Under the pieces are notes generated by a model. The model was not told where the DNA came from. It searched no databases and worked only from the letters and a program-made list of their open reading frames with translations. From Candidatus Heimdallarchaeum aukensis (lineage in GTDB: Archaea > Asgardarchaeota > Heimdallarchaeia > Heimdallarchaeales > Heimdallarchaeaceae): a stretch of 64,000 nucleotides of DNA. Position numbers and translations under genes: made by a program. Below are positions 1,561-60,094 of this stretch, one piece after another (position 1 is the stretch's first letter; every line of letters starts with the position of its first letter). The stretch lies in NCBI GenBank assembly GCA_021513695.1, contig CP084166.1, forward strand, positions 1,728,001 to 1,792,000, read 5' to 3'.

Positions 1561-3858
1561 TTAAAGTTCATAATCATGGGTATGAAACATTACATCGCGG
1601 TTTACAGCTGCTTTAAACATCTGTAGAAGTAATTCATTGTCTGTTCTAATTGCTACAGGCACAGCATCTGGCACCAAAAATGCAAAGATTGCTTCGTCAA
1701 AACCATCCTTAATACCACAGAAAACATCCTTTTTATCGTATTGTCTTAATTTCAAACCTACAAATCGTTCTTTCAAGTTAATTAGAGCATTTCTAAATTT
1801 TCCAGAAGAAAAATCAGAAACAAGTGTTACTCTATTTGCTTTGGTGAACATTGCCATTTCTTCTAACAATGATTCTTCCAGATACGGTGTTATTACTAAC
1901 AACTCTCTACTAGCTCGCATACTTAAATCAGTTAAACTTGCAAGAATTGCTTCTTCCCCAACAATCACTGATACATTGTGATGTCCTCGAATGTTAATAG
2001 AATTTGCTGCTTTATCAATCTGCTTTAACTCACCCTCTCTTGTATTTATTATTTGATAATAGGCTGATGCTTTTTCTTGTAACAAAGCGAGTGTTTCCAT
2101 TATTGCTTCATCAACATCCTTGATAACAGAAGCTACTTGAGCAACAATAGTATCTATTTGTACTTCTTCTGCCTCAATTATTTTAGATGTCAGTTGTTCC
2201 TTTATTTCTTCTGTTTTTTCTTCCATAATTTTTATATCATTGTTTATATGATTCGCAATTTTGTCTTTAGTCTTTAACACTTTGCTTGAAAAGTCTTTAT
2301 CAAACATGGCCAATTTTTCTTTGAAATCTCCACCAATTTTTTTAATATCATCTTTTGTTTTATTTAACTCTGTATTCACTTCATTCTTGAAATCTATCAT
2401 TGTTTTTGAATGCTCATCATGGAACTGCTGGACATTTCCTATAATGTTCGACGAAGTGTTGTCCATACTTTCGGAAATAGTCTTGATTAAATTTGAACTA
2501 ACATCTCTACATGATTCGTAAGAAGAGGTTACATATTTCTCGACTTCATTTTGGATTTTGTTCAGAAGTTCATCAGGGAGGAGTTCTATTTTTTCAGTTG
2601 TTTCTGCTATTATTTTACTCTTTTTTGTTTTAATACTTGTTACTCCACTTAGTTGAAAATGATCAATTTTTTCACGTAGTTTATCTTTTGTTTCGTTAAT
2701 TTTTAAGACGTGTTGATCTACTATTTGGAGACCACTTTCTGAAAAATTATTAGCAAGCAACCTCATTCCATCTCTTACTTCCTGTAGTTTCTCGATTAAC
2801 GGGCTTGCTTTCTTTTTCTTCAGATCTTCTGCGAGATGTAAAGCATCAACTATAGTAGAAGAAAGTTTGTTTATGTTTCTATCAATTTGTTCTACAGATC
2901 TTCTTAGTTCTTGTGTTTGGCGAGTTTGTTCTGTTAAGATGAGATTAATATCTTGCTGCAAGGATTCAGCCAGGTTACGACTCTCCTTAATCCAAGCTTC
3001 AAAAGTATCTTCCCATATTCTTCTATATTCTTTTAGAAACTCTTGTTGTAATTCATTTGCATAGTTTAAATGTTCCTTCAAGACATTATCAAGTTCTGGT
3101 GCAAACTTATCTAAAAAATCTTTATGATTCTCCGTATGTGACTCAAGACCATTCTTTAAGATTTTAAATAATTCTGAAAAATTAGCTGAAAGCTGTTGTT
3201 CTATATTTTTTTTGTTTAATTCACTTCTTTTTTTTGCAGAATGTTCAAACTGTTTTATGAAAGCATCTAATTCTTGCAAATAAGACTCCATTCTGAGAGA
3301 TATGGCAATAGATTGGTTCTGAGCTTCTGCAATTTCTTTAGAAATCAAATTAACTGTTTCATCAAGGATATTAAATGATTCATTTTCTATTGCTTCAGTC
3401 ATTTCTACAAATTGAGAATTAACAGAATCAGTAAGTTGCTTTATTAACCCACTTACAATATGGATATCAAATATGTGCTCATCACTTGAAGTATCTAGTT
3501 TACCACCAAATTGCTTTCGTTTTTCTTTATAAGATGCTGCGTCATTCTTTAAACTATTTATTATTCCTTCAATTGCATATAATGTATCACGTTCTACTGT
3601 TATATATTGTTTCAAAAAAGGAAAAACAGCGAGATATTGTGGAGTTAAACCTTGAATTTTTTTAAGAAAACCGATCTCTTCCAGATTTCTTACTGACTGA
3701 ACTGTTGATAGAGCATCTAGTTGAGTTATAACCATGATTTCGCCTATCGTCGCTTTTCCTAAGCCAAGTATTGTTGTATATATTTTTATATCATTTTCAT
3801 TTAGACCAATTCTGGTTAATAATGGAGGTAATATGTTAACATCACTCATTTGTTTCAC
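1561..3858 (-). CDS. TrmB-like wHTH regulator with ~550-aa central coiled-coil and TrmB-C-like C-terminal domain
   Basis: N-terminus LLTRIGLNENDIKIYTTILGLGKATIGEIMV... matches TrmB-type wHTH; long heptad-rich K/E/Q-rich middle; C-terminus ...LLVITPYLEESLLEEM... resembles TrmB C-domain. Confidence 0.45.
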   Translation of the reverse strand: MKQMSDVNILPPLLTRIGLNENDIKIYTTILGLGKATIGEIMVITQLDALSTVQSVRNLEEIGFLKKIQGLTPQYLAVFPFLKQYITVERDTLYAIEGIINSLKNDAASYKEKRKQFGGKLDTSSDEHIFDIHIVSGLIKQLTDSVNSQFVEMTEAIENESFNILDETVNLISKEIAEAQNQSIAISLRMESYLQELDAFIKQFEHSAKKRSELNKKNIEQQLSANFSELFKILKNGLESHTENHKDFLDKFAPELDNVLKEHLNYANELQQEFLKEYRRIWEDTFEAWIKESRNLAESLQQDINLILTEQTRQTQELRRSVEQIDRNINKLSSTIVDALHLAEDLKKKKASPLIEKLQEVRDGMRLLANNFSESGLQIVDQHVLKINETKDKLREKIDHFQLSGVTSIKTKKSKIIAETTEKIELLPDELLNKIQNEVEKYVTSSYESCRDVSSNLIKTISESMDNTSSNIIGNVQQFHDEHSKTMIDFKNEVNTELNKTKDDIKKIGGDFKEKLAMFDKDFSSKVLKTKDKIANHINNDIKIMEEKTEEIKEQLTSKIIEAEEVQIDTIVAQVASVIKDVDEAIMETLALLQEKASAYYQIINTREGELKQIDKAANSINIRGHHNVSVIVGEEAILASLTDLSMRASRELLVITPYLEESLLEEMAMFTKANRVTLVSDFSSGKFRNALINLKERFVGLKLRQYDKKDVFCGIKDGFDEAIFAFLVPDAVPVAIRTDNELLLQMFKAAVNRDVMFHTHDYEL

Positions 3859-4061
3859 TCACATATAAATTAAATTTTATTTATTCTTTTATCTCTAATG
3901 TCATATTAAGCAGTATAGATTTTAAATTTTTGTTCTCAAAAACAGAAAGCAGTTATAAAAAATACTGATTATATCTTGCCCTCTTTTAACTTACTATCAG
4001 CTATAAATATGTTATTTAGAAATACACTATAGTTATAGTAAAAAGTGGGATAAAAAGAAAA

Positions 4062-4625
4062 TTAAGCATATAGTTTCTCATAGAAAAGTACAATGTTTTT
4101 TAGCAGAGTTTTAAATGCTTCGTCCACGTTTTCACCAGTCTTTGCTGAAGTTTCAATATATGGAACTGCAAAACCTGACCAAGCTGATAACGATCTTGCA
4201 TATTCTTCTGCTTGTTCCCGTAAAATGGGGTCTTTTGCTGTGTCCCTTAAATCAGATTTATTTCCAATTAAAACAATTGGAACAACACGATTATGATTAT
4301 TTTTTAATAGTTCTGCAATCCACGCAGGTATGTTCTCAAAAGATGACCTACGAGATATATCAAAAACAAGCAGGCAACCAGATGTTCCACGATAATATAC
4401 CTCCCGTACTGCTGAAAATCTTTGTTGCCCAGCTAAATCCCATATTTGTGCTACAAAATCCTGTTGATCTATTTTCAATCTTTTTACCGCAAAATCTGCA
4501 CCTATTGTCATACTATATCCTTCTTTAAACCCCTCACCTAGGTATGTTTTTCTGAGTGATGTTTTTCCTACAGCACCGTCACCGAGTAATGTTACTTTGA
4601 AAATTTTTCGCTGTGATGAACTCAT
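4062..4625 (-). CDS. Ras-superfamily small GTPase (Rab/Ras-like; Asgard ESP)
   Basis: G1 GDGAVGKTS, switch I T, G3 DLAGQ, G4 GNKSD, G5 ETSAK; 187 aa; no C-terminal prenylation Cys. Confidence 0.8.
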   Translation of the reverse strand: MSSSQRKIFKVTLLGDGAVGKTSLRKTYLGEGFKEGYSMTIGADFAVKRLKIDQQDFVAQIWDLAGQQRFSAVREVYYRGTSGCLLVFDISRRSSFENIPAWIAELLKNNHNRVVPIVLIGNKSDLRDTAKDPILREQAEEYARSLSAWSGFAVPYIETSAKTGENVDEAFKTLLKNIVLFYEKLYA

Positions 4626-4835: not shown

Positions 4836-5522
4836 ATGAAAAATATGAACAAGTTAGCTAATGTCGTTCTTGAAAGACTTTTAGAACACTATGACATCAA
4901 AAAAAAGGAATTTTTGAATAATTATTCAACTCCCTTTCAGTTACTAGTTGCAGCATTATTAAGTGCTCAAAGCACTGACAAACAAGTGAACACTGTTACT
5001 AACCAACTCTTTAAAAGATATCCAGATCCCCAATCTTTTGCACAATCATCTCCAGAAGAGATAGAACAATATATTAAAAGCGTGGGACTTTACAAGACTA
5101 AAGCCCGAAATATCCATAATCTTTCTAAAGTTTTACTAAGTGAATATAACTCTTCGGTACCTAAAACAATTTCAGAACTAATAAAATTGCCAGGAATTGG
5201 AAGAAAAACAGCTAATGTTGTTTTAAATGATTGGTTTCAAATAAATGAAGGAATAGCAGTAGATACTCATGTGCAAAGAATTAGTTATCGTATAGGCTTA
5301 ACAAAGCATACCAATCCAGAAAAAATAGAAAAAGACTTGATGCTTCTTTTTCCAAAAAATAGTTGGGGTATATTGACTCGTTTATTTATTTCACATGGAA
5401 GAGAAATTTGCTTAGCTCGCAATCCAAAGTGTGATAATTGTTTTTTAAGTGATATTTGTAAAAAAAACATTATCAGAAAAAACAAATCAAGTAAAAGAGA
5501 GAAAAATAATATTACTAAATAA
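4836..5522 (+). CDS. nth: Endonuclease III (HhH-GPD DNA glycosylase/AP lyase)
   Basis: HhH LPGIGRKTANVVL, catalytic region, C-terminal 4Fe-4S cluster CLARNPKCDNCFLSDIC. Confidence 0.85.
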   Translation: MKNMNKLANVVLERLLEHYDIKKKEFLNNYSTPFQLLVAALLSAQSTDKQVNTVTNQLFKRYPDPQSFAQSSPEEIEQYIKSVGLYKTKARNIHNLSKVLLSEYNSSVPKTISELIKLPGIGRKTANVVLNDWFQINEGIAVDTHVQRISYRIGLTKHTNPEKIEKDLMLLFPKNSWGILTRLFISHGREICLARNPKCDNCFLSDICKKNIIRKNKSSKREKNNITK

Positions 5523-6273
5523 CTGTTGTATCAAAATTTGGATCTAGTTCTACGGTATCATCCTCTTTAAGTTGTACTATCTTTATTTTTTCTAATTCCT
5601 TAAGGTATTGTTTTGTTTGACTTAGAGAGATACCTAATACAAAAGATAACTGCATTTGAGAAATTGATTGTAACTGTTTTAACATACTTATTATTTTATA
5701 TCTTGGATCTGTAGAAACTAGTTTTTGTGTTATCTCCTTGACTTTATTCCACTGTTCTTTTTCTTCTTTTAGATTCTTCAATTCTTTTTCAATTTCAGAT
5801 TTTTTTACAGAAAGAGCAACTACTTGATCAGATAATTCATATATTAGTTGTTCTCGTTCTTCTAACATGCTAATAAGTCTAGAAATGTATTCTTTTTGTT
5901 CTTCGACAATGGAAATCTGTTCTTCTTGATTTTCAGTTTCTTCTTGTTTTTTGTACTTCTGTCTATCAAAATCTAATTCTTTTAACAATTTTTCTTTTTC
6001 ATCGACATCAGAAGAACTATAGAATAGTGTAATTAGTCTATAAAACTCTGATTTTATTTCGCTCAAAAGAAATTTGGTGGAACCGTCAATTTGCTCTTTA
6101 ATCATATCAACAATTGAAGTAATTTCAAAAGGAAGATCTTTACTTGTACTTGTTTGTAAAATAGGTGGATATTTTGTTAAACTCTCTTTTAAAGCTTGTA
6201 TTTCATTTGATAATTTTATAATTTCAGTAAGTATTCTCTCTTTTTCATTGTTTTTATTTTCATCTATTGTCAT
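5515..6273 (-). CDS. coiled-coil protein with C-terminal winged-helix-like segment (hypothetical)
   Basis: E/K/Q-rich heptad repeats; C-terminus LSFVLGISLSQTKQYLKELEKIKIV HTH-like; last gene of Roadblock operon. Confidence 0.4.
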   Translation of the reverse strand: MTIDENKNNEKERILTEIIKLSNEIQALKESLTKYPPILQTSTSKDLPFEITSIVDMIKEQIDGSTKFLLSEIKSEFYRLITLFYSSSDVDEKEKLLKELDFDRQKYKKQEETENQEEQISIVEEQKEYISRLISMLEEREQLIYELSDQVVALSVKKSEIEKELKNLKEEKEQWNKVKEITQKLVSTDPRYKIISMLKQLQSISQMQLSFVLGISLSQTKQYLKELEKIKIVQLKEDDTVELDPNFDTTVI

Positions 6274-6281
6274 TTTTCACC

Positions 6282-7112
6282 CTATATCTTTGAGGTTGAT
6301 TCGATCTTGAATCCTTCTTCTTCTGATGGAGATACATCCAAAACTTCACTTATATATGCAACACCCATTAATTTACTTATAGAAAATGTATCTCTTAACC
6401 TTGAACCAATTCTATCTCTTGTAAAATAGAAAATTCCTTGAGCATAATTTAAAATAATTTGTTCTGCTACAGGATTCAGAATATTTTGAGGGAGTAAAAA
6501 AAAGTGCACTCCACCTATTTTTGAAAACATCTGAATTATCTCTTTCATAAAACTAATTAATGTGTTATGATCGTCATCCAATTGATCTTCCTTTAGCCAT
6601 AGAAGGTCATCGAAAACACTAAAACAATTCTTTTTCTGTGTTTCTTTAACATGCATAATCTTTTCTATAATACGTTTAACGTATGTTCTTCTTTTTACCT
6701 CAATTCGCCCTATTTTTAATGAAGTAGTTGTGCTGCTAGCCATATCATACATATTTTCAAAGAAAAAAGATTTGTCCTTTACACTCATTATATCCCAGTT
6801 GTATGCCGTATATGATTGTTTTACAAGCTCAAATGGTTTACTACTATGCACATAAAAAACACGGTTAAGATCAGTTTTTTGAGCCCAGTTAAGAACAATA
6901 CGTTGTACAAATAACAGAGGAATTACTGAAGATGCAGGGTAAGAAACGACAATTACAGAACCAGAAGGAATACCTTGTCTTGCAGACATCTCCATACCAA
7001 GCTTTTGATCTAAAGAACGAATTCCAGTTTTAATTAATCCTGTGGAAAGTGTAGATTCAGCGCCTACTTTACCTATTCTTTCTATATTTCCTCTTGTATT
7101 GTTGAAACTCAT
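6282..7112 (-). CDS. KaiC/RadA-like RecA-superfamily domain protein with degenerate Walker A (predicted inactive ATPase)
   Basis: TGIRSLDQKLG...GIPSGSVIVVSYPASS aligns to the KaiC TGIxGLDxxLGGGxPxGSxxLxxGxPGxGKT block but the GKT P-loop is replaced by SYPASS; downstream FYVHSS/NWDI blocks conserved. Confidence 0.5.
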   Translation of the reverse strand: MSFNNTRGNIERIGKVGAESTLSTGLIKTGIRSLDQKLGMEMSARQGIPSGSVIVVSYPASSVIPLLFVQRIVLNWAQKTDLNRVFYVHSSKPFELVKQSYTAYNWDIMSVKDKSFFFENMYDMASSTTTSLKIGRIEVKRRTYVKRIIEKIMHVKETQKKNCFSVFDDLLWLKEDQLDDDHNTLISFMKEIIQMFSKIGGVHFFLLPQNILNPVAEQIILNYAQGIFYFTRDRIGSRLRDTFSISKLMGVAYISEVLDVSPSEEEGFKIESTSKI

Positions 7113-7138
7113 CTTCTAACCCCGCATAGAGTAATTAT

Positions 7139-7666
7139 TTAGAATTCTTCTAGTTCTTTTAGTGCGAGTTCAAGATCAGATAAATACTCTTCTTGAACAG
7201 ATTCAACTTTTGGAGTTGGTTCAGCAGTTGAAACTTGTGTTGGTGTACTAACGGGTTGTTTTGCTTCTATGGGTTTTGTTTCAACATCCAATATTGCTCT
7301 GATATTTTCAGACTGTATTTTCATAGTTCGTCTAACCAAACCTAGTTGAATGCCTGCATCTGTTATAAGACAGAGTACAGAGCTACCACAACTAGCAACT
7401 AAAATAAATCCATCTTCAAATTCTGAGATAATAATATCCAAATTTTCTAGACCAACATTTGTTCCTTGTTGTTCAGAAGCTAAATATACTGCACTTGCTA
7501 TTGCTCCTAGAGCTTCTGTTTCAAACTCATCGAAAGCAAATCTTGAAGAATATGCCAGTGTCAACCCTGTTTTATCAGCTAAAATAACATGGTTTATTAA
7601 AGGATCACTTGTAATAATTTCATGGAGAATACTGTTTATCTTATCTACACCGATAATTCTTATCAC
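7139..7666 (-). CDS. Roadblock/LC7 (MglB-like) domain protein
   Basis: INHVILADKTGLTLAYSS...ALGAIASAVY...GFILVASCGSSVLCLITDAGIQLGLV matches Robl_LC7 profile; ~55-aa low-complexity C-terminal tail. Confidence 0.75.
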   Translation of the reverse strand: MIRIIGVDKINSILHEIITSDPLINHVILADKTGLTLAYSSRFAFDEFETEALGAIASAVYLASEQQGTNVGLENLDIIISEFEDGFILVASCGSSVLCLITDAGIQLGLVRRTMKIQSENIRAILDVETKPIEAKQPVSTPTQVSTAEPTPKVESVQEEYLSDLELALKELEEF

Positions 7667-48773: not shown

Positions 48774-50216
48774 TTATTTCTTGATACCCAAGAAACCAGC
48801 TAATGCTGGAACTGTTTCTGCTACTTGTTCACTGGCAAAAATCTCATAATATTGTTTCAAGATTCCGACAGTAAGCAAAATTCCAGTACCCGTTCCTAAT
48901 GCGCCTAGAAAGTCAGCAAAGGCCGCTAATACACCTATAAAGAAACCTCCTAACCAAGCTGCAGTAGGAATATATCTATCCAGGTATTTTTCGACAATAC
49001 GAGGGTTACGACGAAAACCAGGAATTTGCATATCAGCATCAAGTAATTGCTTGGCAACATTACGAGAACTCATACCTGCAGTATCAATCCAAATCCTAGA
49101 AAAGACACCACAGAGGATAACCATCAAAATAAAGTATGTAACAGCTTGCCAAGGTTGTTCAACTATTTGTTCCGGACCATATGGAGCAGTAGTAAAGGAA
49201 GCTAAACCATTGATTGGCCGGCTTTGTTGTGTATCTCCGATGGTATCCCATTCACCAAAAAAGGTGACCAAGAATCCACGAATTCCTGGATCGTTTGCAT
49301 CCCATTTATTATCCAGGAGATTGCTGATAAAGTAGATATTTGCAAATAGGGCACTAACTAAAATAACTGGGATGTTGGATGTATAGAGGAATTTGATAGG
49401 ATAACGAGCAGGCATTTTGTATTGACTATGTTGAACAGGAATCTCTATTCGAATACCATCAACATACATAACCATAGCAAAGACAACAATTGTAGCTACC
49501 AATCCAATAATGTCAGGAGTACGTCCAGTACGATTGATAGATTGCATAACGGTATTTTCTTCACGAATAATGCTCTGGAAAAAGGCGATAACAGCTCCAC
49601 GAGCTAAACCATACTGATCAGGGGTGAGATTGAACATACCATCAACAATGTTAAAACTAACACTAGTGGCAATAAAGAGAGAAATACCACTACCTAAACC
49701 ATAACCCTTCTGGATGACTTCATCCATCATCATGATAACAAAACCAGCAGCAACAAGCTGAACTAAAAAGAGAGTCTGTTGAGCGAAACCTAAATCTTCA
49801 CCATAAGCGCCACCAAGAATATAAGCAAGAGCTTCAAAAAGAAGCATAAGAATAGACATAATCTTTTGAGCACCAGTGTACAAAGCACGCTCTTCAGGGT
49901 TACTAAAATCAACCTTGATAATTTGGGAACCCACGAGGAGTTGCATGATTAAGCCGGCAGTTACGATTGGACCGATCCCTAACTCTGCTAATGTTCCTCT
50001 TTGCGAGGCTAATATTGCTCTCATTGCATAAAATGGGTCTGTTCCTTGTGTTTCTTTAAATCCTACAAGGGGTATATTTAGCATTGCCAGATACAGTATC
50101 AATATTCCGAATGTCCAGAATAATTTTGCTTTGAATGACAGTTTTCTTTCTGGTTTTTTCACTTCAAAAGTAAATCTTTGAAAAGGTTTGAATATTGCTA
50201 AGAATTTACTTGCCAC
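48774..50216 (-). CDS. secY: Preprotein translocase subunit SecY (Sec61 alpha)
   Basis: 480 aa, 10 TM topology, conserved position after rpl15. Confidence 0.9.
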   Translation of the reverse strand: MASKFLAIFKPFQRFTFEVKKPERKLSFKAKLFWTFGILILYLAMLNIPLVGFKETQGTDPFYAMRAILASQRGTLAELGIGPIVTAGLIMQLLVGSQIIKVDFSNPEERALYTGAQKIMSILMLLFEALAYILGGAYGEDLGFAQQTLFLVQLVAAGFVIMMMDEVIQKGYGLGSGISLFIATSVSFNIVDGMFNLTPDQYGLARGAVIAFFQSIIREENTVMQSINRTGRTPDIIGLVATIVVFAMVMYVDGIRIEIPVQHSQYKMPARYPIKFLYTSNIPVILVSALFANIYFISNLLDNKWDANDPGIRGFLVTFFGEWDTIGDTQQSRPINGLASFTTAPYGPEQIVEQPWQAVTYFILMVILCGVFSRIWIDTAGMSSRNVAKQLLDADMQIPGFRRNPRIVEKYLDRYIPTAAWLGGFFIGVLAAFADFLGALGTGTGILLTVGILKQYYEIFASEQVAETVPALAGFLGIKK

Positions 50217-50334
50217 TTTTTACTCCTCTTTCTTTTTTCTTTTCTCTGTCTTTTTCAGAAAAATCGTACCTTTAAAAGCCTTTTCTCTTTGTCTTTTTCT
50301 AACAAAATAAGTTAAATAAAAAGTAAAAAAGAGT

Positions 50335-50787
50335 TTATTCTGGAAGAACTACTTTTCCCCCAGCTTCTTCTATTTTCTTGATTGCACGTTCTGAAGCCTT
50401 CTTCACCTTTATCTCTACAGGAGAAGATATTGCTCCTTGAGCGAGAAGCTTAGTGTAACCTAGCGCTCCGAGATCGATAACAATATTTTTCCCTTTTTTC
50501 TCAGCTTGTCCTTTAGCTATTAAATTAGGGATCATAGCATCAATCTGGGAGATATTGATAACTTTATCTTTCTTGACCACTGCAGGGGGACGAGTAAAAC
50601 CATGTTTTCCTATAGGCTTTCGTCGACCTAGAATTACTAGCATCTTGTGTCGAGTTTTGGGTCCACATTTTCCTACACCTCCGCGAATACCGCTATTTTT
50701 GTGTCCTTTTTGTTTTCCCCATCCATGATGCTGAGAACCTCTAAGTCTTCTTACTCTTTTCTTGAATCTTACTACCATTTTTCTCAC
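50335..50787 (-). CDS. rpl15: Ribosomal protein L15 (uL15)
   Basis: RKKRVRRLRGSQHHGWGKQKGHKNSGIRGGVGKCG N-terminus typical of uL15/L27a. Confidence 0.85.
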   Translation of the reverse strand: MRKMVVRFKKRVRRLRGSQHHGWGKQKGHKNSGIRGGVGKCGPKTRHKMLVILGRRKPIGKHGFTRPPAVVKKDKVINISQIDAMIPNLIAKGQAEKKGKNIVIDLGALGYTKLLAQGAISSPVEIKVKKASERAIKKIEEAGGKVVLPE

Positions 50788-51245
50788 GCCATCCTCACAA
50801 TTAATTCATTTATTGCTTCGCCTCTGTAGCCTAGATCTCCGCCTTCATTGTATCCTCTTTTCACACTCTTGAAACCTTTTCTTGGTGGATGTAACCTGAA
50901 GAATTTCTTCAGCCCTGGAACATCGCTCAATTTTGCTTTTCCTTCGTATACTGCTTTTGCAAAATCTTTTATGCTTTTATACTCTGAATTTTCTTTTATG
51001 TATTCATCAGTAAGTCTTTGCTTTCCTCTTAGTTCTCCTCTTTTTTCTAGTAAATAGGTTAGGGTTTCAAGATTTATTTCTCCATATGTGATAGTATCTT
51101 TTGCTCTTTTTAGCATACCCATATATGATGGTGTATTAGGTATTATAGTCATATAGTTTTTTCTTCTAATGTTAAGCATATCTAGTGTTTCTTTTATTTT
51201 ATAATAAAATCCTACAGTTCCTCTTATTCTTATTACTGCTAGCAT
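50784..51245 (-). CDS. rpl30: Ribosomal protein L30 (uL30)
   Basis: MLAVIRIRGTVGFYYKIKETLDMLNIRR; track ORF start (51269) likely 8 codons too long. Confidence 0.85.
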   Translation of the reverse strand: MLAVIRIRGTVGFYYKIKETLDMLNIRRKNYMTIIPNTPSYMGMLKRAKDTITYGEINLETLTYLLEKRGELRGKQRLTDEYIKENSEYKSIKDFAKAVYEGKAKLSDVPGLKKFFRLHPPRKGFKSVKRGYNEGGDLGYRGEAINELIVRMA

Positions 51246-51279
51246 TGTCTTTTTTTCATCTTTGCTCATTTTTTCTCAC

Positions 51280-51927
51280 CTATTGTTTTGTCCAATCGTA
51301 TGGTGCTACTACTGAGTAAGTGTTTTTTAGTGCTTCAAAAGTTGCTTTTGCGAAATTGTTTGTAGTTCTTGTTTCTCCGAATGTTTTACTCCACACATCA
51401 TCTATTCCTGCTAATCTTAGAACCGTTTTTGCTACATCTCCCACCACTAGTCCTAGTCCTCTTGGTGCTGGAATTAGTACTACTTTTGTTGAACCGCATT
51501 TTCCTTCTACTTTATATGGTACTGTGTGATTTCCTCCACAAGAGCATTCCCAGCTTCCACAAGATCTTCTTACTGGTCTAATGTTCAATTTTGCATTTGT
51601 TATGGCTTTCTTTATTGCAGGACCGATTTCTTTAAGTTTTGCTTCTCCTACACCTACATATCCGTTCTTATTTCCTACCACTACAGTAGCTCTAAATCTT
51701 CTTTTTCTTCCTGCATCTGATTGCCTTTGTACTAATTTAATATCAATAACTTCGTCCTCAAGGTCAGGTAATAAAATATCAATTATTTCTGCTTCTTGTA
51801 TTTTCAAGTTTTGCGCAAATATTTCGTCGATGCTTGTTATTTGTCCCTCTTTTACCATTCTTCCTAATCTAGTCAGTGGTTCCCATTCTTCATAATCTAA
51901 AAAATCATTACTACTCATTTTACTCAC
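51280..51927 (-). CDS. rps5: Ribosomal protein S5 (uS5)
   Basis: [25 protein letters not shown]...; C-terminal S5 domain. Confidence 0.9.
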
Positions 51928-52576
51928 TTTCCTCTATTTTTGTTTTTGTTTCTTCGAAGTAAGTCTGTATTTCCTCTGGCTTTTTATTCACTTGAAGATA
52001 TTTACCAAAGTATCGCTTATACTTCTCTTTATCCTCTTTTGCCAAGAGTCTTCCGTAATTTGCTATATGCTCTCCTCTAATTCGCTCTTCATCAGGGATC
52101 ATTTTTTCTCCATAAGGTATATCTACTCCAGCATCGACTATTCCTTTCAACGCTGCAAATAACCTTGTTTTAGGTAATGCTTCCAAGGTTCCAATATCTA
52201 GTATCGCTTCATCTATATCCGCTTTTAGCGCTCTTTTGCCTGCTAAAAATCCAGTTAAATAGGCTGCAGGCATATTAGATGTTGCTATGTCCCAACCATA
52301 TTGTGCTAAATCTTTTGATAACACTTGGGTGATGGTTTGGTCACCACCTTGTTTGGAACGGATAAATTGAATACGTAGAGCTTTATTAGAGGGGCGTATT
52401 GCAACACGAATTTTTCCTGATTTTAACAATCTTGTTCGCTGCCCATAGTCTGTTTTTTGCTCTCTTCTTCGCCTGAAAGGCATTCTATAGAGAGGACCAT
52501 GTTTCTTTTGTGGTGGAGGACTTTTTCTCTTCCTATATCTCTTTCTTCGTTTCATTGCTTTTTTTGACATTGACAT
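51920..52576 (-). CDS. rpl18: Ribosomal protein L18 (uL18)
   Basis: [42 protein letters not shown]. Confidence 0.85.
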
Positions 52577-52590
52577 TTTTCAGTCACCTC

Positions 52591-53061
52591 TTATTTTAAG
52601 TCAGGAAGGCGTTTCTTAGCCAACCCATGTTCCTCGATGTAGGTTCTAAGATATCGTACACTCCTAAATAAGCCACCTTTAGCTTGTAAATAGAGTTTCC
52701 TGTAAACAGATTTTTCTATATATCCTTCATCTCTCAGCTTAGCAAGGTATTTTCGTTGAGCTCGAATGTGATTAATCCAACGGGTTTTCCTTGGAAGTCT
52801 TGAGTATTTTGGACCCTCTCTGCTTCCAGGACCTTTTCTTTGACCTTTTCTCTTTTTAGCGGCATTAGCTCGAGCTCTTCCTCGACTTACACCTTTTATT
52901 TTTCGCTTCTTTATATCTCCGGTGTCTATGTGCCCTCTAATATCTTCTCTTGTAATAGCTAGTGAGAGATCTTGTAGGCTGTCAGGATCAATTTTAACTC
53001 TATTTTTACCAACCTTTAATATTTTGGCAGCAATTCTTCTTTGTGATTTTACATCAGTCAT
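52591..53061 (-). CDS. rpl19e: Ribosomal protein L19e
   Basis: MTDVKSQRRIAAKILKVGKNRVKIDPD...; full-length eL19 pattern. Confidence 0.9.
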   Translation of the reverse strand: MTDVKSQRRIAAKILKVGKNRVKIDPDSLQDLSLAITREDIRGHIDTGDIKKRKIKGVSRGRARANAAKKRKGQRKGPGSREGPKYSRLPRKTRWINHIRAQRKYLAKLRDEGYIEKSVYRKLYLQAKGGLFRSVRYLRTYIEEHGLAKKRLPDLK

Positions 53062-53091
53062 TCTTTTTCACGCCCATATTCGCACTATGTA

Positions 53092-53631
53092 TCATTCTGA
53101 AGATTCTTGCTCTGAATCTTCATCTTCTAGAGCTTCCTCAGGTTCTTCTTCAAAATCTTCTTCAAATTCGAATTCGTCTTCACCTAGTAACTCGTATTCT
53201 TCTACTTCTTCACCAAATTCAGCTACTTCAACGGCTTTAACTGGTAAATTAAGTACCTTTATGTGAAGATCTTCAGCTCGTTCAATTATTTGTTGTCTTT
53301 TTCTTAAACCGACTGTTCGTTGAATCATAACGGCATCTGTTTCTGGATCAAGTCCTTCTAATTGTGAAACATTGCTTACGTGTTTCACTGAATAACCTGA
53401 AGGATGCATACCACGAACTGCTTTAGGCCCTCTATAGCCAACGCCAGCCATTTTTGGATAACCTTTTATCTTTTTACGCATTTTGTTGTCGATACCCTTT
53501 GGACGACGCCAATTGCTCTTAAGACGTTTGTATCTCCAAGATTCTGGCCGAACGAAATTGGGCCTTCTTGCATTTATTTTTTGCTTTATACGCAATAACC
53601 GTAATCGTTCTTTATTTTCTGTCATCGTCAA
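53092..53631 (-). CDS. rpl32e: Ribosomal protein L32e with acidic C-terminal extension
   Basis: RPNFVRPESWRYKRLKSNWRRPKGIDNKMR core; ~45-aa tail EEYELLGEDEFEFEEDFEEEPEEALEDEDSEQESSE. Confidence 0.85.
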   Translation of the reverse strand: MTMTENKERLRLLRIKQKINARRPNFVRPESWRYKRLKSNWRRPKGIDNKMRKKIKGYPKMAGVGYRGPKAVRGMHPSGYSVKHVSNVSQLEGLDPETDAVMIQRTVGLRKRQQIIERAEDLHIKVLNLPVKAVEVAEFGEEVEEYELLGEDEFEFEEDFEEEPEEALEDEDSEQESSE

Positions 53632-53861
53632 TCAACTATTAACGTCAATAACGTGGTGTAAGTAAAATCTCCACTGTCCTTTTTTAATCATTATCATTGT
53701 TGTTTTTTTGAAACAAAAAAGAGATAATTTCATTTTGGGGGTTATAAGTATAATAGAATGCATTAATTACGGAAACTGAAAAAATAACAAAAAGCTTGAC
53801 TAAAATGAGATAACAAAAAATAAGTTAATGGATAAAAGAAAACAAAAAAATAGATGAGGAA

Positions 53862-54419
53862 TTACTCTTTCTCGTAAACCCAGACTCCATCCATGAAAAC
53901 TTCAGGATCCTTCTTTCTCTTTCCTCTTAATCTACATATTTCTTGCATATTTGCTACTGTTTGTCCTACTGCTTCTTTATCTATTCCTGTTGTGATAACG
54001 TCTTCTTTGTCAACTGTAACTTTAGTATCATCGCCTACTATTTTTGCTTTTAGTAATTTTCTACCACCATAAAGGTTCTTTATTATTACTTCTCTCTTCT
54101 TATTATCTGGTTCTACAGTAATAGGAAAGTGGGAAAATACTATTTTAGATTTGTATGTATAACCCTTCCTTGTTCCTTCGATCATATTGCTAAATAATCC
54201 AACGGCAGAAAGAATCTTTGCTTTCTTTCTTCTGTTTAAGTTGTATGCACTGAATTTCATTTTGGAGCCTTCTAGGCTAATATATGTTTCATCAAATCTA
54301 CTAAAATCTTTTGTCAATTTTCCTTTAGGACCTTCTACAGTAATAATTTTTCCATCTAGGGTTACTTTTACGTCTTCGGGTATTTCTATTTCTCTTTCTA
54401 TAACTACAGTTTTTGTCAT
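53862..54419 (-). CDS. rpl6: Ribosomal protein L6 (uL6)
   Basis: Two uL6 alpha/beta repeats; IPEDVKVTLDGKIITVEGPKGKL. Confidence 0.9.
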   Translation of the reverse strand: MTKTVVIEREIEIPEDVKVTLDGKIITVEGPKGKLTKDFSRFDETYISLEGSKMKFSAYNLNRRKKAKILSAVGLFSNMIEGTRKGYTYKSKIVFSHFPITVEPDNKKREVIIKNLYGGRKLLKAKIVGDDTKVTVDKEDVITTGIDKEAVGQTVANMQEICRLRGKRKKDPEVFMDGVWVYEKE

Positions 54420-54429
54420 TTTACGTCAC

Positions 54430-54822
54430 CTAGTAGATATATGCTAATAATCTCCCGCCTATTCCTTTTTCTTTTGCATCGTCATGACTCATAACTCCTT
54501 CAGGGGTTGTAACAACAAGCACTCCAAAATTTTTAGCGGGTAAATATTTTTGCTCCCATTCTTCAAATTCATCTTTTGCTACAGGATAACGAGGTTTTAT
54601 TACTCCACACTTATTAATTCGTCCCATTAACTGAACTTCAAATATTCCTCCTCGATGGTCATTGATATATTCTAATTCACCCAGATAACCAGCTCTTTGT
54701 GCAGTTCTAAGAACATTTGCCACTAGTTTACTCGCGGGTTTAATAGATACTTTTTTCTTTCCTGTTCTTTCAGCATTCAATATAGAATTTAGAGCATCTG
54801 CTAAAGGATCAACTTGTACCAT
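54430..54822 (-). CDS. rps8: Ribosomal protein S8 (uS8)
   Basis: [29 protein letters not shown]...; preferred ATG at 54822 (track GTG at 54831 would overlap uS14). Confidence 0.9.
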
Positions 54823-54823
54823 T

Positions 54824-54991
54824 TTATCCACCTCTACTCCCGGTTTTCTTAAAACCTATTTTATCATATATTTCTCTAATACATCGTCTGCAAATCATTA
54901 GGTCAGCTCTTCTAATTACTCCTTGATGTGTACCACAACGTTGGCATTGGCGGGATCCTTTTCCATATTTTATTTCTCTTCTTTCTTGCAT
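54824..54991 (-). CDS. rps14: Ribosomal protein S14 (uS14, zinc-ribbon type)
   Basis: Not in ORF track (55 aa). [55 protein letters not shown]; CxxC..CxxC; canonical position between rpl5 and rps8. Confidence 0.85.
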
Positions 54992-54996
54992 TTTTA

Positions 54997-55569
54997 TCAC
55001 TTCACAATTTTAATGTTAAACTCTTTAGAAGCGAATTCCATTGCTTCCTCTTTTGTAATCAGATGTTTCTTTGGTATTTTCTTTCTTTGATTTCGTCTGT
55101 ACTTCAGTCTATATCCTGGCCTTTCTAGTTTAACAACAACATTAAACCCTATTGTTCCTAACATTGGATCAAAAGGTGCATCTCGGATATCTACATGTTC
55201 AGTTATACCAAAACTGAAGTTACCTTGCTGATCAAACGCTTTCTGCTTTATAATATAGTCTTTTGCATACAAACATCTGTCTAGCATTTCTTTTGCTTCT
55301 TCTCCCCGCAGAGTAACAATGGCTGCGATAGGCTCTCCTTTTCTTATTCCAAAGTCTCTGATACTTTTCTTTGCTGGTCGTTCGGAGGGAACTCGTCCTG
55401 TAATTTGAGATAGTATGGTTTTAGCTCTCTCGAATCTTGGACCAGATTCACCTACTGCAGCGTTCAATATTACTTCTTTCAAGTATGGTTTTCTCATGGG
55501 ATGTTTTTCCCATTCTTTTGAGTATTTTTCTTCGATTTCAACTTCTTCTAAAGGTTCTCCAAAAAGCAT
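54997..55569 (-). CDS. rpl5: Ribosomal protein L5 (uL5)
   Basis: KEVILNAAVGESGPRFERAKTILSQITG...; uL5 core. Confidence 0.9.
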   Translation of the reverse strand: MLFGEPLEEVEIEEKYSKEWEKHPMRKPYLKEVILNAAVGESGPRFERAKTILSQITGRVPSERPAKKSIRDFGIRKGEPIAAIVTLRGEEAKEMLDRCLYAKDYIIKQKAFDQQGNFSFGITEHVDIRDAPFDPMLGTIGFNVVVKLERPGYRLKYRRNQRKKIPKKHLITKEEAMEFASKEFNIKIVK

Positions 55570-56327
55570 TAGTTATCCACCTCCGGTAAACCAACATCTT
55601 GATCTGGAGTTTCTTTTCCAATAACGAAAATGTAACGATACAAAGTTTCAATAGTAGTTCCTGATGTTGTACGAATAGTAGCAGTTTTTGTTTTTGATGT
55701 TCCGTGAGTACTAATATTTTCTATTACTCCATGTTGACCCATACCACGACCACTAATTATTAATCCATAATTACCGACTTCTAAATCGAATTTGTCAATT
55801 ATTTTTTGTTCAGGTATAGATATTTTTACTGTTGCATGAGTTGAATATTCTGCAGCGATCTTATAGTCATCTTCTGAAAGGATAATATTTCTTCCATCAT
55901 GAAGATTTAATTGTGTTTTTCCTCCTTTTAATGTGGTCTTGTTAACAATTTGACAGAATTTTACCTTTGCCTTTTCTTCATCTATAGGTACAAGACGTAA
56001 ACCAATTTTTGGTATGTATAGCATCCTATAATGTTCATTTATTTTAGGTAAACTAAAAACATCCATAAAACCGACAGGATATTTTCGGTCAAGTTTTACA
56101 CGTCCATCAACGAGAACGTTACGTTCATAAATTATTTTTTTAACTTCACTGATGTTTCGAGCATATTTTAAGAGATCTCTTAAAATTATAGCTGTAGGAA
56201 TACAATCATCTGCAGCATGTGGTCCTGGAGATGGTCTAACTGAAAAGGTGTATTCTTTTTTGTGTATGGGGTAATGCTCAGAAACAACTAATCTTTTCAA
56301 GTGTTTTTTTCCGCCTGATTTTGTCAT
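55569..56327 (-). CDS. rps4e: Ribosomal protein S4e
   Basis: GGKKHLKRLVVSEHYPIHKKEY...; S4 and KOW domains. Confidence 0.9.
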   Translation of the reverse strand: MTKSGGKKHLKRLVVSEHYPIHKKEYTFSVRPSPGPHAADDCIPTAIILRDLLKYARNISEVKKIIYERNVLVDGRVKLDRKYPVGFMDVFSLPKINEHYRMLYIPKIGLRLVPIDEEKAKVKFCQIVNKTTLKGGKTQLNLHDGRNIILSEDDYKIAAEYSTHATVKISIPEQKIIDKFDLEVGNYGLIISGRGMGQHGVIENISTHGTSKTKTATIRTTSGTTIETLYRYIFVIGKETPDQDVGLPEVDN

Positions 56328-56839
56328 TATTCATTCTCCTCCTCTGTAGAATCTTCTTCAAAATCTTCTTCGAAATCTTCTTCGAAATCATAATCTTCGT
56401 CTAAGGTTTCTTCTACTTCTGTTTCTTCATCAAATATGCTTTCTTCTAAGTCTTCATCTGTTAGATCTTTCACAGAACGTCGTTTCAATAATTCTTTTCT
56501 CTTCTTATCCTTCAAATTCAGACTTGTAATAATGATATTTGAGGGTTTTACTGGAAAAGATTTTATTGTTCCGTCAGCTTTCTCTTTACTATGACCTTCA
56601 ATGTGAATTGCATATTTTTGAGGAAGACATCTGATAACTTTTCCTTTTATCTCATCTTCTTCTCTAATAGCTTTAACTACAACAACTTTATCTCCGCGAA
56701 CAACAGGAATTCTTTTTACTCCATATTTTTCTTGTAATTCTTTGGAGAGTCTTGCAGTCATGCCTTTTTTACGTTGGTGCAAAGGACGATTGAAATATCG
56801 TTTTCTTTGTTTCCCAGGTTTAATTGTCTTTGTTTTCAT
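56327..56839 (-). CDS. rpl24: Ribosomal protein L24 (uL24) with acidic C-terminal extension
   Basis: KOW VVRGDKVVVVKAIREEDEIKGKV; ~50-aa tail ...EDLEESIFDEETEVEETLDEDYDFEEDFEEDFEEDSTEEENE. Confidence 0.85.
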   Translation of the reverse strand: MKTKTIKPGKQRKRYFNRPLHQRKKGMTARLSKELQEKYGVKRIPVVRGDKVVVVKAIREEDEIKGKVIRCLPQKYAIHIEGHSKEKADGTIKSFPVKPSNIIITSLNLKDKKRKELLKRRSVKDLTDEDLEESIFDEETEVEETLDEDYDFEEDFEEDFEEDSTEEENE

Positions 56840-56849
56840 TGTAAATCAC

Positions 56850-57266
56850 CTACACAATTATTGATGCTCGATGAGCAATCCTTGGCCAGTGTTCTGCAGC
56901 TTCTTTAGCAATAGGTCCACGAATTTCGGTTCCTAAGGGGTCTCCTACTTCATTTGTCAAGACTATTCCATTTTCTTCAAATTGTATCCATGTACCATCT
57001 GGTCTTCTGAAAGGAGCTCTTTGTCTAACTACAACAGCATGATAAATTTGTTTCCTTCTTTTAGGAGAACCTTTTTTCACACTAACAATACACATAGTTC
57101 CTACTGTTGCCCAAGGAATACGATTTAATCTTCCTCTATATCCTTTGACAGCAATAATCTCCACTTCTCTAGCTCCTGAATTATCAGCACACTTCACTCT
57201 ACTACCAACAATAAGTGATGGCTTTCTTCTTTTTAATGGACGTCCAACTGTCTTACGTTTCGCCAT
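56850..57266 (-). CDS. rpl14: Ribosomal protein L14 (uL14)
   Basis: MAKRKTVGRPLKRRK...VKCADNSGAREVEIIAVKGY; preferred start M6 of track ORF. Confidence 0.9.
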   Translation of the reverse strand: MAKRKTVGRPLKRRKPSLIVGSRVKCADNSGAREVEIIAVKGYRGRLNRIPWATVGTMCIVSVKKGSPKRRKQIYHAVVVRQRAPFRRPDGTWIQFEENGIVLTNEVGDPLGTEIRGPIAKEAAEHWPRIAHRASIIV

Positions 57267-57277
57267 AATCACACACC

Positions 57278-57616
57278 TCAAGCGGATTTAAGTTTTTCAA
57301 TTACAACAAAAGAAACAGTCTTAGAGAGAGGACGACATTCTGCTGCGCGTACTAAATCTCCTTCTTTTACATTAAGGCAAGGAGGATTATGTGCACTTAT
57401 TTTTCCATGCTCTCTCTGGTATCTCTTATATTTCTTAACGTATCGTAAGAAATCTCTTCGAATAACGACAGTTCTTCGCATTTTGTCAGATACAACACGT
57501 CCAACAAATATTCTTCCCCTCACTGGCAATTTCCCATGAAATGGACATCTAGGGTCATCACAAGTTGTTGTGGGGGGTTCTACATCAATTCCAATATTCC
57601 GTACTTTACTACTCAT
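57278..57616 (-). CDS. rps17: Ribosomal protein S17 (uS17)
   Basis: GRVVSDKMRRTVVIRRDFLRYVKKYKRYQREHGKISAHNP. Confidence 0.85.
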   Translation of the reverse strand: MSSKVRNIGIDVEPPTTTCDDPRCPFHGKLPVRGRIFVGRVVSDKMRRTVVIRRDFLRYVKKYKRYQREHGKISAHNPPCLNVKEGDLVRAAECRPLSKTVSFVVIEKLKSA

Positions 57617-57802
57617 ATGATCAACTCCAATAAGCGTCTTATACCCATGGTAAGTTCTACCAATTTTGGCTCTAGATAACTAGAGTAAGACGTCTTATTT
57701 TACGTATATTTAACAATTAATTATACTAATTACAGCCAAAATTTTTCCTTTTTAATTGTTTTTATTGTTAAGATTTTTCAAACTAAAAAAATAATCTTCT
57801 CC

Positions 57803-58108
57803 CTACCAAGAATGAATTTTTTTCTTCATTCTATCTTCTGGTTTTCCTAAAAGATTCTCTCCATTAACTTTAACTGTTAACCCAGGTTCAATAGTAATTT
57901 TAAAAACGAACCCTTTTTTTGGAATAGAACGAATCTTGTCTTGAAAGCGAATTTTTATCATATGAGCTGTTTCGTCAATAACTACTCCACTAAGATTTGT
58001 AAGTGATTCCATAGGGCTTTTAACAATTTCAATGTGATATCCATAGAGACCAACAGCAAGTTTTGCCCATATATACAACTTTTTTTTAAAAATCAAGTTC
58101 ATCTCCAT
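57803..58108 (-). CDS. rnp1: RNase P protein subunit Rpp29 (Rnp1)
   Basis: GLYGYHIEIVKS...LSGVVIDETAHMIKI Sm-like fold pattern; canonical position between rpl29 and rps17. Confidence 0.7.
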   Translation of the reverse strand: MEMNLIFKKKLYIWAKLAVGLYGYHIEIVKSPMESLTNLSGVVIDETAHMIKIRFQDKIRSIPKKGFVFKITIEPGLTVKVNGENLLGKPEDRMKKKIHSW

Positions 58109-58209
58109 TTAATTAGTACTTACACAAACAATTCCAGATTCTACTTATAAATATTCAACCAAAGTAAATTAAAAAATGTATTTTATAAAAGGGAGAGAGA
58201 AAATAAAAA

Positions 58210-58413
58210 TTAAAGTTCTCCTTCTTCAGTTAATATAGTTAAAATACGAGCAATTGTTCTTTTATATTCTCGGATTTGTCCTGGATTCTCAATACTTCCT
58301 CCAGATGCTAACTCCGATTTTACTTTGAAGAGTTTTTGTTTATACTCTTCTAACTTTTTTAATTTTTGCTCTCTTGTTAATTTTCTTATTTCTGCGGGTT
58401 TAAGTTCAGCCAT
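58210..58413 (-). CDS. rpl29: Ribosomal protein L29 (uL29)
   Basis: MAELKPAEIRKLTREQKLKKLEEYKQKLFKVKSELASGG. Confidence 0.85.
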   Translation of the reverse strand: MAELKPAEIRKLTREQKLKKLEEYKQKLFKVKSELASGGSIENPGQIREYKRTIARILTILTEEGEL

Positions 58414-58426
58414 ATTTTACACCTTT

Positions 58427-59410: not shown

Positions 59411-59861
59411 TTTCTGCTACAAGTTCTATATGAACATATTGTCGAACTTTTGGAGTTGACCTTCCGTGAGCCCTATAAAAGTAACGAACTTCTTTAGAAC
59501 CTTTCAAAGAAACAGCATGGATTATCTTAGCTTTATCAACTTGAAGCTGATTTGCCTCGACGTTGTTTTCCAAATTTTCAACAACCTTTAAGATTTCTTT
59601 GGCAGCTTTAACGGGGTAACGTCCTGCAGCCCATCCTTGTAAATCACTTTTATGTCCAACGTTTCGCTTATATCGTCTGTATGGAACACTTCGCTTCTTA
59701 GCGATGACATCCTCAAGATATTCTTTACACTGATCAATCTTCATACCTTTAATTGCTCTAAGAATCTCTCTAGCAGCTTTTGGTGATATGTCAATATCCC
59801 TAGCTGAAGCTTTTGCGCTACGATCAGGGTCAGTTATTATACTGTATTTATATGAAGGCAA
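59400..59861 (-). CDS. rpl22: Ribosomal protein L22 (uL22)
   Basis: ISPKAAREILRAIKGMKIDQCKEYLEDV...; first gene of the cluster in this window. Confidence 0.85.
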   Translation of the reverse strand: MPSYKYSIITDPDRSAKASARDIDISPKAAREILRAIKGMKIDQCKEYLEDVIAKKRSVPYRRYKRNVGHKSDLQGWAAGRYPVKAAKEILKVVENLENNVEANQLQVDKAKIIHAVSLKGSKEVRYFYRAHGRSTPKVRQYVHIELVAEIED

Positions 59862-60094
59862 CTTAATATCTCCTTTCTTATTATCTCTCTAAAGTGTGTG
59901 GTGAGTATCCAATTTTTAAGGTTTGTTTTTACTCACTTTAATTCAAAGTGACAACCACACACTGAACATTTTCAACTTTTAAAAAATGTTTAAAACAATT
60001 TGGTTTGTCGAGAAAAAAAAATCATGAAAAATTGATAAAAAATGAAAGTTTTAACATAAATTTTTGAATAAAAGGTGAAAAGAAAGAAGAATTA

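Follow-up and report, generated by a model that had tools for sequence, protein, structure and literature searches.

What is the function of a protein whose two ends resemble archaeal regulators of the TrmB family and whose middle is some 500 residues of helix? The question is raised by a stretch of 64,000 nucleotides from the Candidatus Heimdallarchaeum aukensis genome (contig CP084166.1, positions 1,728,001 to 1,792,000; hereafter the window), in which a single open reading frame (ORF) on the minus strand, positions 1561..3858, encodes 765 amino acids (aa) counted from GTG 3858. The product matches K9W45_07485, a hypothetical protein of 762 aa from Ca. Heimdallarchaeum aukensis, with 100% identity. 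We favour the explanation that it is a DNA binder similar to the archaeal chromatin protein TrmBL2, carrying a hairpin of ~450-500 residues with 11-residue (hendecad) periodicity at the junction between its dimerisation helix and C-terminal domain, and serving an architectural role. Our confidence in that reading as a whole is evenly balanced, and the following sections set out the evidence for its parts.

Terminal modules of the TrmB family

The N-terminal module contains a TrmB-type winged helix-turn-helix (wHTH). Residues 14-78 match PF01978 (TrmB wHTH) with 29.4 bits, above the Pfam gathering score of 25.6, and block identity across the wHTH is 0.87-0.95 among orthologues whose overall identity is 47%. 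A profile built from diverse N-terminal modules matched TrmB (3QPH) with an expectation value (E) of 6.8e-12 over residues 8-130 and TrmBL2 (5BPD) with E=1.6e-8 over residues 1-109, in both cases spanning the wHTH and the dimerisation helix. The alignment therefore continues past the wHTH as far as TrmB residue 130 and TrmBL2 residue 109. AlphaFold2 (AF2) models helices at 81-86, 90-105 and 107-116, and an invariant G118-G119 closes the post-wHTH helix. Following the domain order of TrmB and TrmBL2 (PMC4877046), we assign this segment as the amphipathic dimerisation helix that directly follows the wHTH in TrmB-family proteins, and predict that it dimerises.

The C-terminal module was harder to place. 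Neither the single sequence nor a close-family profile recovered anything TrmB-like for the C-terminus from the PDB or Pfam. The sole C-terminal query to recover TrmBL2 and TrmB was a profile of 23 diverse family C-domains (profile A3), which matched TrmBL2 (5BPD/5BOX/5BQT) at E=5.5e-5 over chain residues 116-263, that is, the entire C-domain to the C-terminus, and TrmB (2F5T/3QPH) at E~2e-3. When an AF2 model of the C-domain alone (predicted local distance difference test score, pLDDT, 72) was compared with solved structures using Foldseek, it matched TrmBL2 5BPI_D at E=1.4e-6 with a query TM-score (TMq) of 0.67 and a root-mean-square deviation (rmsd) of 3.3 Å, and TrmB 2F5T with TMq 0.70 and rmsd 2.9 Å. 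Generic PLD-fold proteins also matched this model, and with the full-length AF2 model TrmBL2 ranked first (E=2e-7).

In Pfam the query alone has no match to PF11495; short relatives score 22.7 bits (cutoff 22.2), and their alignments cover only positions 2-136 of the 233 in the profile. The second half of PF11495, the sugar-binding subdomain, was not found, and the protein stops after the PLD-like domain. A PLD enzyme identity was rejected, as the HxKxxxxD (HKD) motif is absent from all 23 aligned family C-domains, where the equivalent strand reads Y-D-K-K-D-V-F-C. On these comparisons we assign the C-terminal module as the non-catalytic PLD-like half of the TrmB C-terminal region, with the sugar-binding half missing. 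This absence places the core nearer to the chromatin protein TrmBL2 than to the sugar sensor TrmB. An earlier sequence-only reading of this DNA had seen TrmB-type modules at both ends, the C-terminal one by its LLVITPYLEE block, and had doubted that the protein is a simple sugar-responsive repressor. Both modules are borne out by the matches above, and the doubt by the absent sugar-binding subdomain and by a nearest solved relative, TrmBL2, that is a chromatin protein.

TrmBL2 is a tetrameric chromatin protein of the Thermococcales that has no sugar/effector domain, coats DNA and acts as a global repressor; the coating is of low specificity, the filaments are stiff and the protein is highly abundant (PMC4877046, PMC3031468). 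The Asgard protein has the same extended wHTH, amphipathic dimerisation helix and terminal PLD-like C-domain as TrmBL2 (TK0471 / PF0496; 5BPD, 5BOX, 5BPI, 5BQT), which is the best profile match of its C-terminal module, end to end, is among the two top Foldseek matches of the C-domain by E-value, and matches the N-terminal module too. However, TrmBL2 has 264 aa, with ~8 residues from helix to C-domain where the Asgard protein has ~500 residues of hendecad helix, and sequence identity between the Thermococcales and Asgard proteins is ~13-16%. Tetramer and filament behaviour is known from TrmBL2 itself (PMC4877046). TrmB of P. furiosus / T. litoralis (3QPH, 2F5T) likewise shares the wHTH with dimerisation helix and the PLD-like first half of its effector domain, but the Asgard protein lacks the C-terminal sugar-binding subdomain and carries a giant insert. 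By its N- and C-terminal modules we therefore classify the protein as a TrmB-family member that is neither a sugar-sensing TrmB, because the sugar-binding subdomain is absent, nor TrmBL2, because of the 500-aa insert, the ~15% identity and the different phylum.

Periodicity and topology of the rod

Between the two modules the AF2 model, as assigned by DSSP, is helical over ~500 aa, which agrees with the sequence-only reading that a very long helical insert separates the TrmB-type modules. That reading had also described the insert as a continuous heptad-repeat region of ~550 aa, rich in K, E, Q and L, and these particulars were not upheld as stated. Besides being ~500 aa long, the middle is rich in E, K, I and L and not in Q, with few Gly or Pro residues (3 Pro in ~490 aa), and it is interrupted at residues 349-351 and 422-428. 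Fourier analysis of the hydrophobicity of residues 96-620 gave a power of 41.9 at a period of 3.66, whereas none of 200 shuffles exceeded 12.2 at any period of the grid. At the heptad period of 3.5 the power was 0.8, which is background, and it was at most 2.2 in 17/17 orthologues; a heptad coiled coil is thus ruled out. The phase of the 11/3 wave stays in a narrow range from ~residue 130 to ~615, and in an 11-residue register the hydrophobic occupancies are 0.52, 0.57, 0.41 and 0.67 at positions spaced 3-1-3-4, the a-d-e-h pattern of a hendecad. The signal is common to all 17 orthologues, nearly all distant relatives have their best period at 3.62-3.70, and among the window's 62 ORFs of at least 150 aa it is unique to the rod gene. 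The rod is therefore a hendecad (11/3) helical region and not a heptad one. A discrete 11-mer or 22-mer repeat unit was rejected, as BLOSUM autocorrelation peaks at offsets of 4, 7, 8, 11, 15, 18, 22 and 26 are of similar height.

Does such a rod extend or fold back? In the AF2 model the break at 349-351 divides two helical spans of equal length, 127-348 and 352-573, each of 222 aa, the second of which is kinked at 422-428. Across 17 orthologues (762-767 aa, ~47% identity) the only indels in ~490 rod residues fall at one spot, residues 342-357, and on either side of it lie the rod blocks with the highest conservation, 321-340 and 361-380, at a column identity of 0.95 each. Moreover, conservation along the rod mirrors itself around residue 347.5: 194 residue pairs correlate with r=0.78-0.83, whereas the best direct-shift control reaches 0.49. 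An equal or higher mirror correlation together with a centre on the indel site was found in 0/400 spectrum-preserving surrogates. An independent subfamily of ~680 aa replicates the result, with its mirror centre at residue 310 inside its largest indel site (306-319), a joint event seen in 1/400 surrogates. The insert falls in the 8-residue junction of TrmBL2, between the equivalents of residues ~109 and ~117, and its two ends would therefore be adjacent if a TrmBL2-like head is preserved. The turn itself holds a basic cluster (KKKK; KLGKARK in relatives) with a conserved Pro next to it, giving an apex sequence of LKKKKASPL without a CxxC, and has a net charge of +2 between two acidic arms. From this convergence of independent lines we infer an antiparallel hairpin of 2 x 222 residues, with arms of ~33 nm, in preference to an extended rod.

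Comparison of the two length classes gives a further hint. In an hhalign alignment of their profiles (probability 100%, E=4e-65), arm 1 of the shorter class lacks a net ~70 residues and arm 2 lacks ~14. We looked for symmetric indels between the classes; instead the indels are asymmetric and it is the loop that tracks the midpoint, as the loop of the 680-aa class aligns at query residue 374 and a midpoint-seeking turn predicts 375 (347+28). This is suggestive only of a loop that follows the geometric midpoint across length classes. As a separate observation, the invariant prolines P254 and P428 (window ~3095-3097 and ~2573-2575), one per arm, stand roughly opposite each other (254+428=682, against 695 for exact pairing) and together may make up a conserved elbow, ~12-14 nm away from the tip.

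Proposed function and competing explanations

Taken together, these features lead us to infer the hairpin packing, oligomeric state, DNA binding and architectural function in the following manner. Two arms of ~222 residues, ~33 nm each, would be inserted as a hairpin between the dimerisation helix and the C-domain. They would be essentially straight, without supercoiling of the heptad type, because the hydrophobic stripe repeats every 11 residues (a-d-e-h). Antiparallel packing would bring the chain back to its base, so that a TrmBL2-like head is preserved. By homology, pairs of wHTHs would bind DNA, helix ~80-116 would dimerise, and the C-domain would drive higher oligomers in the manner of TrmBL2. 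From the anatomy of the molecule, the two hairpins of a dimer probably associate as a straight four-helix strut of ~33 nm, which would be repelled by DNA because it is acidic, and so would project from it. The conserved basic tip could then touch a second DNA duplex, another tip, a membrane or a partner protein. The most likely role would be that of a DNA-anchored strut of fixed, lineage-specific length, spacing, bridging or tethering DNA, and not sugar-responsive repression. The length is strict within a lineage and falls into discrete classes between lineages, which suggests that length itself is functional, as a spacer or ruler.

Mechanical hendecad rods have archaeal precedents. Tetrabrachion is a hendecad rod. 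The E-G peripheral stalk of the A/V-type ATPase is a right-handed hendecad coiled coil (PMC3293630). The Asgard rod has in common with both of these straight, stiff struts the 11/3 periodicity and the a-d-e-h core; unlike it, they are parallel hetero- or homo-oligomers with no fold-back and no DNA-binding head, there is no sequence homology, and the Asgard stalk is 2-3x longer than the E-G stalk. The cytoplasmic hairpins of MCP chemoreceptors are long and antiparallel, dimerise to a four-helix bundle, have a highly conserved turn and occur in discrete length classes. The Asgard stalk resembles them in its conserved turn, discrete lineage length classes, weak profile matches and the four-helix packing proposed above. 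However, MCPs are built on heptads, are anchored in the membrane and pass their signal to CheA/CheW, and there is no homology beyond periodic helices.

Several observations weigh against our preferred explanation. The size of the mirror correlation is not significant by itself, being reached by 47/400 and 38/400 surrogates in the two subfamilies; significance attaches only to the centre falling on the indel site. In a further subfamily, a mixed ~760-aa class, the mirror result was off-centre and, owing to the poor alignment, uninformative. Profile-profile alignment can slip within a periodic rod, which weakens the midpoint-tracking, and the full-length AF2 monomer model is of low confidence (mean pLDDT 59, predicted TM-score 0.26). 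With regard to function, the protein may instead be a high-affinity, sequence-specific regulator, and the palindrome-bearing region upstream of the gene could mean autoregulation. A nucleoid-associated architectural role nevertheless appears the best estimate, with a sequence-specific regulator bearing a docking stalk as its main functional rival.

This rival, which we consider unlikely although it is the best of the alternatives, keeps the same hairpin and makes the protein a transcription factor with a small number of operators, its own among them. Its stalk would be a signalling hairpin of the chemoreceptor type or a docking arm, the tip of which binds a regulator that governs DNA binding. 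Most TrmB-family proteins are specific regulators, a precedent in its favour. The wHTH is very strongly conserved, as are the flanks of the tip, which in this respect are like the partner-binding tips of MCP hairpins, and TrmBL2 too represses some promoters (PMC3031468). Moreover, H. aukensis and H. endolithica share nearly 100% identity over the ~95 bp 5' of the ATG and have diverged heavily in the more distant half of the spacer. This palindrome-bearing block may serve as an operator for autoregulation or form a conserved leader, in a comparison that covers two closely related genomes only. On the other side, the protein lacks the known effector (sugar) subdomain, a rigid strut of 33 nm and conserved length would be unusual for ligand sensing, and no conserved neighbour partner or target operon was found across the Asgard lineages examined. 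Beside the TTTTTG-AGAA-CAAAAA inverted repeat, the upstream block also holds AT-rich TATA-like elements.

We see only a slim chance that the rod is extended. The sequence-only reading had envisaged a filament-forming or SMC-like rod; in this form of the idea the ~500-aa helix would be a parallel dimeric coiled coil of ~70 nm, with wHTH heads and C-domains at opposite ends, acting as a filament or SMC-like scaffold. It would account for a region that is almost wholly helical, with its few Gly and Pro residues, and a hendecad register kept across the central break is possible for a continuous coil. Foldseek also returned weak, non-significant matches to the coiled coils of Rad50 and MukB, but these are themselves antiparallel fold-backs. 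Against extension, the sole indel site, the AF2 break and the mirror centre coincide at the exact midpoint, as the second subfamily replicates, and extending an insert placed in the 8-residue TrmBL2 junction would tear apart the helix/C-domain arrangement of TrmB and TrmBL2. The evidence therefore favours a fold-back hairpin of ~33 nm. Such a hairpin is like the arms of SMC, Rad50 and MukB in having a DNA-binding head, a long intramolecular antiparallel coil, a distal apex that could bridge, and possible elbow prolines (P254/P428). However, it has no ABC ATPase head, hinge or CxxC zinc hook, its fold matches to them are not significant, and it is a regular hendecad as opposed to an irregular arm. 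P-loop, ABC or SMC domains were not found in the ORF with Pfam or NCBIfam.

An equally small chance attaches to an apolipoprotein- or perilipin-like rod, whose 11-mer-periodic helices would bind a membrane or lipid body, perhaps opening from a bundle, and so anchor DNA to a membrane. An 11/3 periodicity is a hallmark of exchangeable apolipoproteins, perilipins and synucleins, and the rod shares it. Apolipoproteins (apoA-I, A-IV, E; apoLp-III; PF01442) are also like the rod in their 11-residue amphipathic periodicity and elongated lipid-free bundle, and supply its best sequence-level matches: PF01442 at residues 475-600 with 28.2 bits (Pfam), many relatives with up to 51 bits, and the structures of apoA-IV, apoA-I, apoE and apoLp-III at E=4e-4 when the close-family profile was used and 1.8e-16 when the diverse one was. 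However, every PF01442 score is far under the gathering threshold of 90 bits, and the same rod profiles score just as highly against tape-measure proteins, ZorA tails, SMC6, MCPs and designed bundles; we therefore attribute all of these matches to periodicity and composition and not to homology. The rod also has neither proline punctuation nor an 11- or 22-mer unit (autocorrelation at offset 11 is not above that at 7, 18 or 26), its length is strictly conserved, with no indels over 480 residues at 47% identity, it is fused to DNA-binding modules, and its position-specific, mirror-symmetric conservation fits a folded strut better.

A defence-system or phage origin was rejected, since the likeness to ZorA and tape-measure proteins (E 1e-7 to 3e-4; PADLOC, PHROGs) is at rod level only. 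The MotA/ExbB membrane domain that marks ZorA was not found in the ORF, and the surrounding genes are housekeeping genes and not those of a phage tail. The rod profile also draws in unrelated, very long helical proteins, among them a 'SpiroCoCo family coiled-coil protein' of Spirochaetota, phage tape-measure proteins and ZorA tails, which likewise bear sub-threshold 'Apolipoprotein' or 'Baculo_PEP_C' Pfam labels. Non-heptad periodic rods may thus be a broad, poorly annotated structural class. For the rod family itself, heptad-based coiled-coil predictors and the Pfam 'Apolipoprotein' label are misleading.

If the architectural hairpin is correct, the protein would be an undescribed design of DNA binder, a chromatin-type TrmBL2 head bearing a straight, length-defined 33-nm hairpin strut, and would offer coiled-coil structural biology a clear case from nature of an antiparallel hendecad hairpin of great length. 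We did not find a published description of this architecture or family in the searchable literature. A wider proposal, which we regard as rather improbable, is that Asgard archaea possess a dedicated class of DNA-anchored struts, TrmBL2-like heads with rigid hendecad hairpin stalks that measure ~10 to >90 nm depending on the lineage, the conserved basic tips of which bind a second DNA duplex, the membrane or a cytoskeletal element and which set inter-DNA spacing or tether the nucleoid. If so, they would be a prokaryotic forerunner or analogue of chromatin tethering and spacing in the closest relatives of eukaryotes.

Gene, family and neighbourhood

The features of the gene and its surroundings are collected in Table 1. 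The mechanical ORF opens at GTG 3858 and the GenBank protein (762 aa) at ATG 3849. Query residue M4 (MS..ILPPLL) is the first residue in 16/16 retrieved homologues, and translation therefore probably starts at the ATG at 3849 and yields 762 aa. Conservation among the orthologues indicates that the gene is real and under purifying selection.

Table 1. Features of the rod gene and its surroundings in the 64,000-nucleotide window (residues numbered from GTG 3858)
Feature	Position in window	Strand	Basis and remarks
Whole ORF	1561..3858	-	stop codon 1561-1563; ORF list
Non-catalytic PLD-like domain, TrmB/TrmBL2 type (assigned; residues 622-765)	1564..1995	-	profile A3, Foldseek; protein ends here
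Conserved connector, stalk base to C-domain (residues 574-621)	1996..2139	-	block identity 0.83-0.92; AF2 helices 593-606, 608-618 (low confidence)
Putative stalk arm 2 (residues 358-573; AF2 helices 352-421, 429-573, spanning 222 aa)	2140..2787	-	net charge -8; invariant L426-L427-P428 kink
Putative hairpin turn/tip (residues 342-357)	2788..2835	-	sole rod indel site; AF2 break 349-351; mirror centre 347.5
Putative stalk arm 1 (residues 127-341; AF2 helix 127-348, 222 aa)	2836..3480	-	net charge -15; invariant A253-P254; AF2 DSSP, periodicity
Helix after wHTH (residues ~80-116), predicted TrmB/TrmBL2 dimerisation-helix equivalent	3511..3621	-	profile alignment, AF2; ends at G118-G119
TrmB-type winged helix-turn-helix (residues 14-78)	3625..3819	-	PF01978, N-module profile, block identity
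Conserved promoter or leader region (candidate)	3850..3944	-	H. aukensis vs H. endolithica comparison; TTTTTG-AGAA-CAAAAA palindrome at 3927-3942
Ras/Arf-family small GTPase	4062-4625	-	same strand as rod gene
Second gene of GTPase/endonuclease III pair	4836-5522	+	listed with GTPase entry
Roadblock/LC7 + KaiC-like + wHTH trio	5515-7666	-	relatives: L001 3565-5738, L002 4014-6226, L004 14131-16265, L006 10182-12282, L011 3174-5327

An exhaustive phmmer search of 1.8 billion representatives returned 64 relatives, comprising ~30 full-length proteins (646-765 aa, 19-27% identity), short forms of ~360 aa and giants of 941, 1,302 and 1,474 aa. The N- and C-terminal modules are common to all length forms, and the rods fall into classes of ~100-157, 240, 364, 420-430, 480, 510-540, 640-690 and >1,000 aa. 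All named members are Asgard archaea, from the Heimdall-, Hod-, Kari-, Hermod-, Prometh(Loki)-, Thor-, Njord-, Ran-, Frey- and Sigynarchaeota. The suggestion of the sequence-only reading, that similar architectures of a helix-turn-helix (HTH) with a long coil be sought in Asgard genomes, was thus rewarded across the group. The rod family is conserved across the archaeal lineage that gave rise to eukaryotes. Asgard chromatin and cell architecture are actively studied, and the rod family may have been overlooked there because its members are annotated only as "hypothetical" or "helix-turn-helix domain-containing".

Lastly, we considered the genes nearby. In Heimdall-group genomes the rod gene lies 2-4 kb from a trio encoding a Roadblock/LC7 protein, a KaiC-like protein and a coiled-coil wHTH protein, and a small GTPase and endonuclease III are also near; order and orientation vary. 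At three Promethearchaeota loci the trio, the GTPase and endonuclease III are absent beside the rod gene, which is flanked by other housekeeping genes. An operon partnership with the GTPase or the trio was therefore rejected, and the Heimdall-group neighbourhood is better read as synteny. The Ras/Arf-family GTPase gene shares the strand of the rod gene in both Heimdallarchaeum species and lies 200 bp upstream of it; elsewhere in the Heimdallarchaeaceae the genes for the GTPase and endonuclease III are swapped in place and orientation, a local inversion in conserved synteny.

The internal order of the trio is identical in five Heimdall-group genomes, namely Roadblock/LC7 (175 aa), the KaiC-like protein (~276 aa) and the coiled-coil protein (~250 aa), the last of which ends in a C-terminal MarR/HTH_24-like wHTH. 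The KaiC-like protein of the window is 42% identical to its homologue at locus L004 and is probably not an active ATPase, as its Walker A position reads 'SYPASS'. The trio appears to be a separate module, so far uncharacterised. At two loci of the ~680-aa class (L004 10022-11875 and L006 6328-8184) the rod gene converges on an ABCE1/RLI gene (617-618 aa) with a 4-bp overlap, which is kept in these two distant Heimdall-group genomes. Elsewhere in the window, positions 50001-60000 show strongly negative skews throughout, of -0.17 to -0.23 for GC and -0.16 to -0.30 for AT, much stronger than in the rest of the stretch, which suggests one or more very large minus-strand genes of biased composition.

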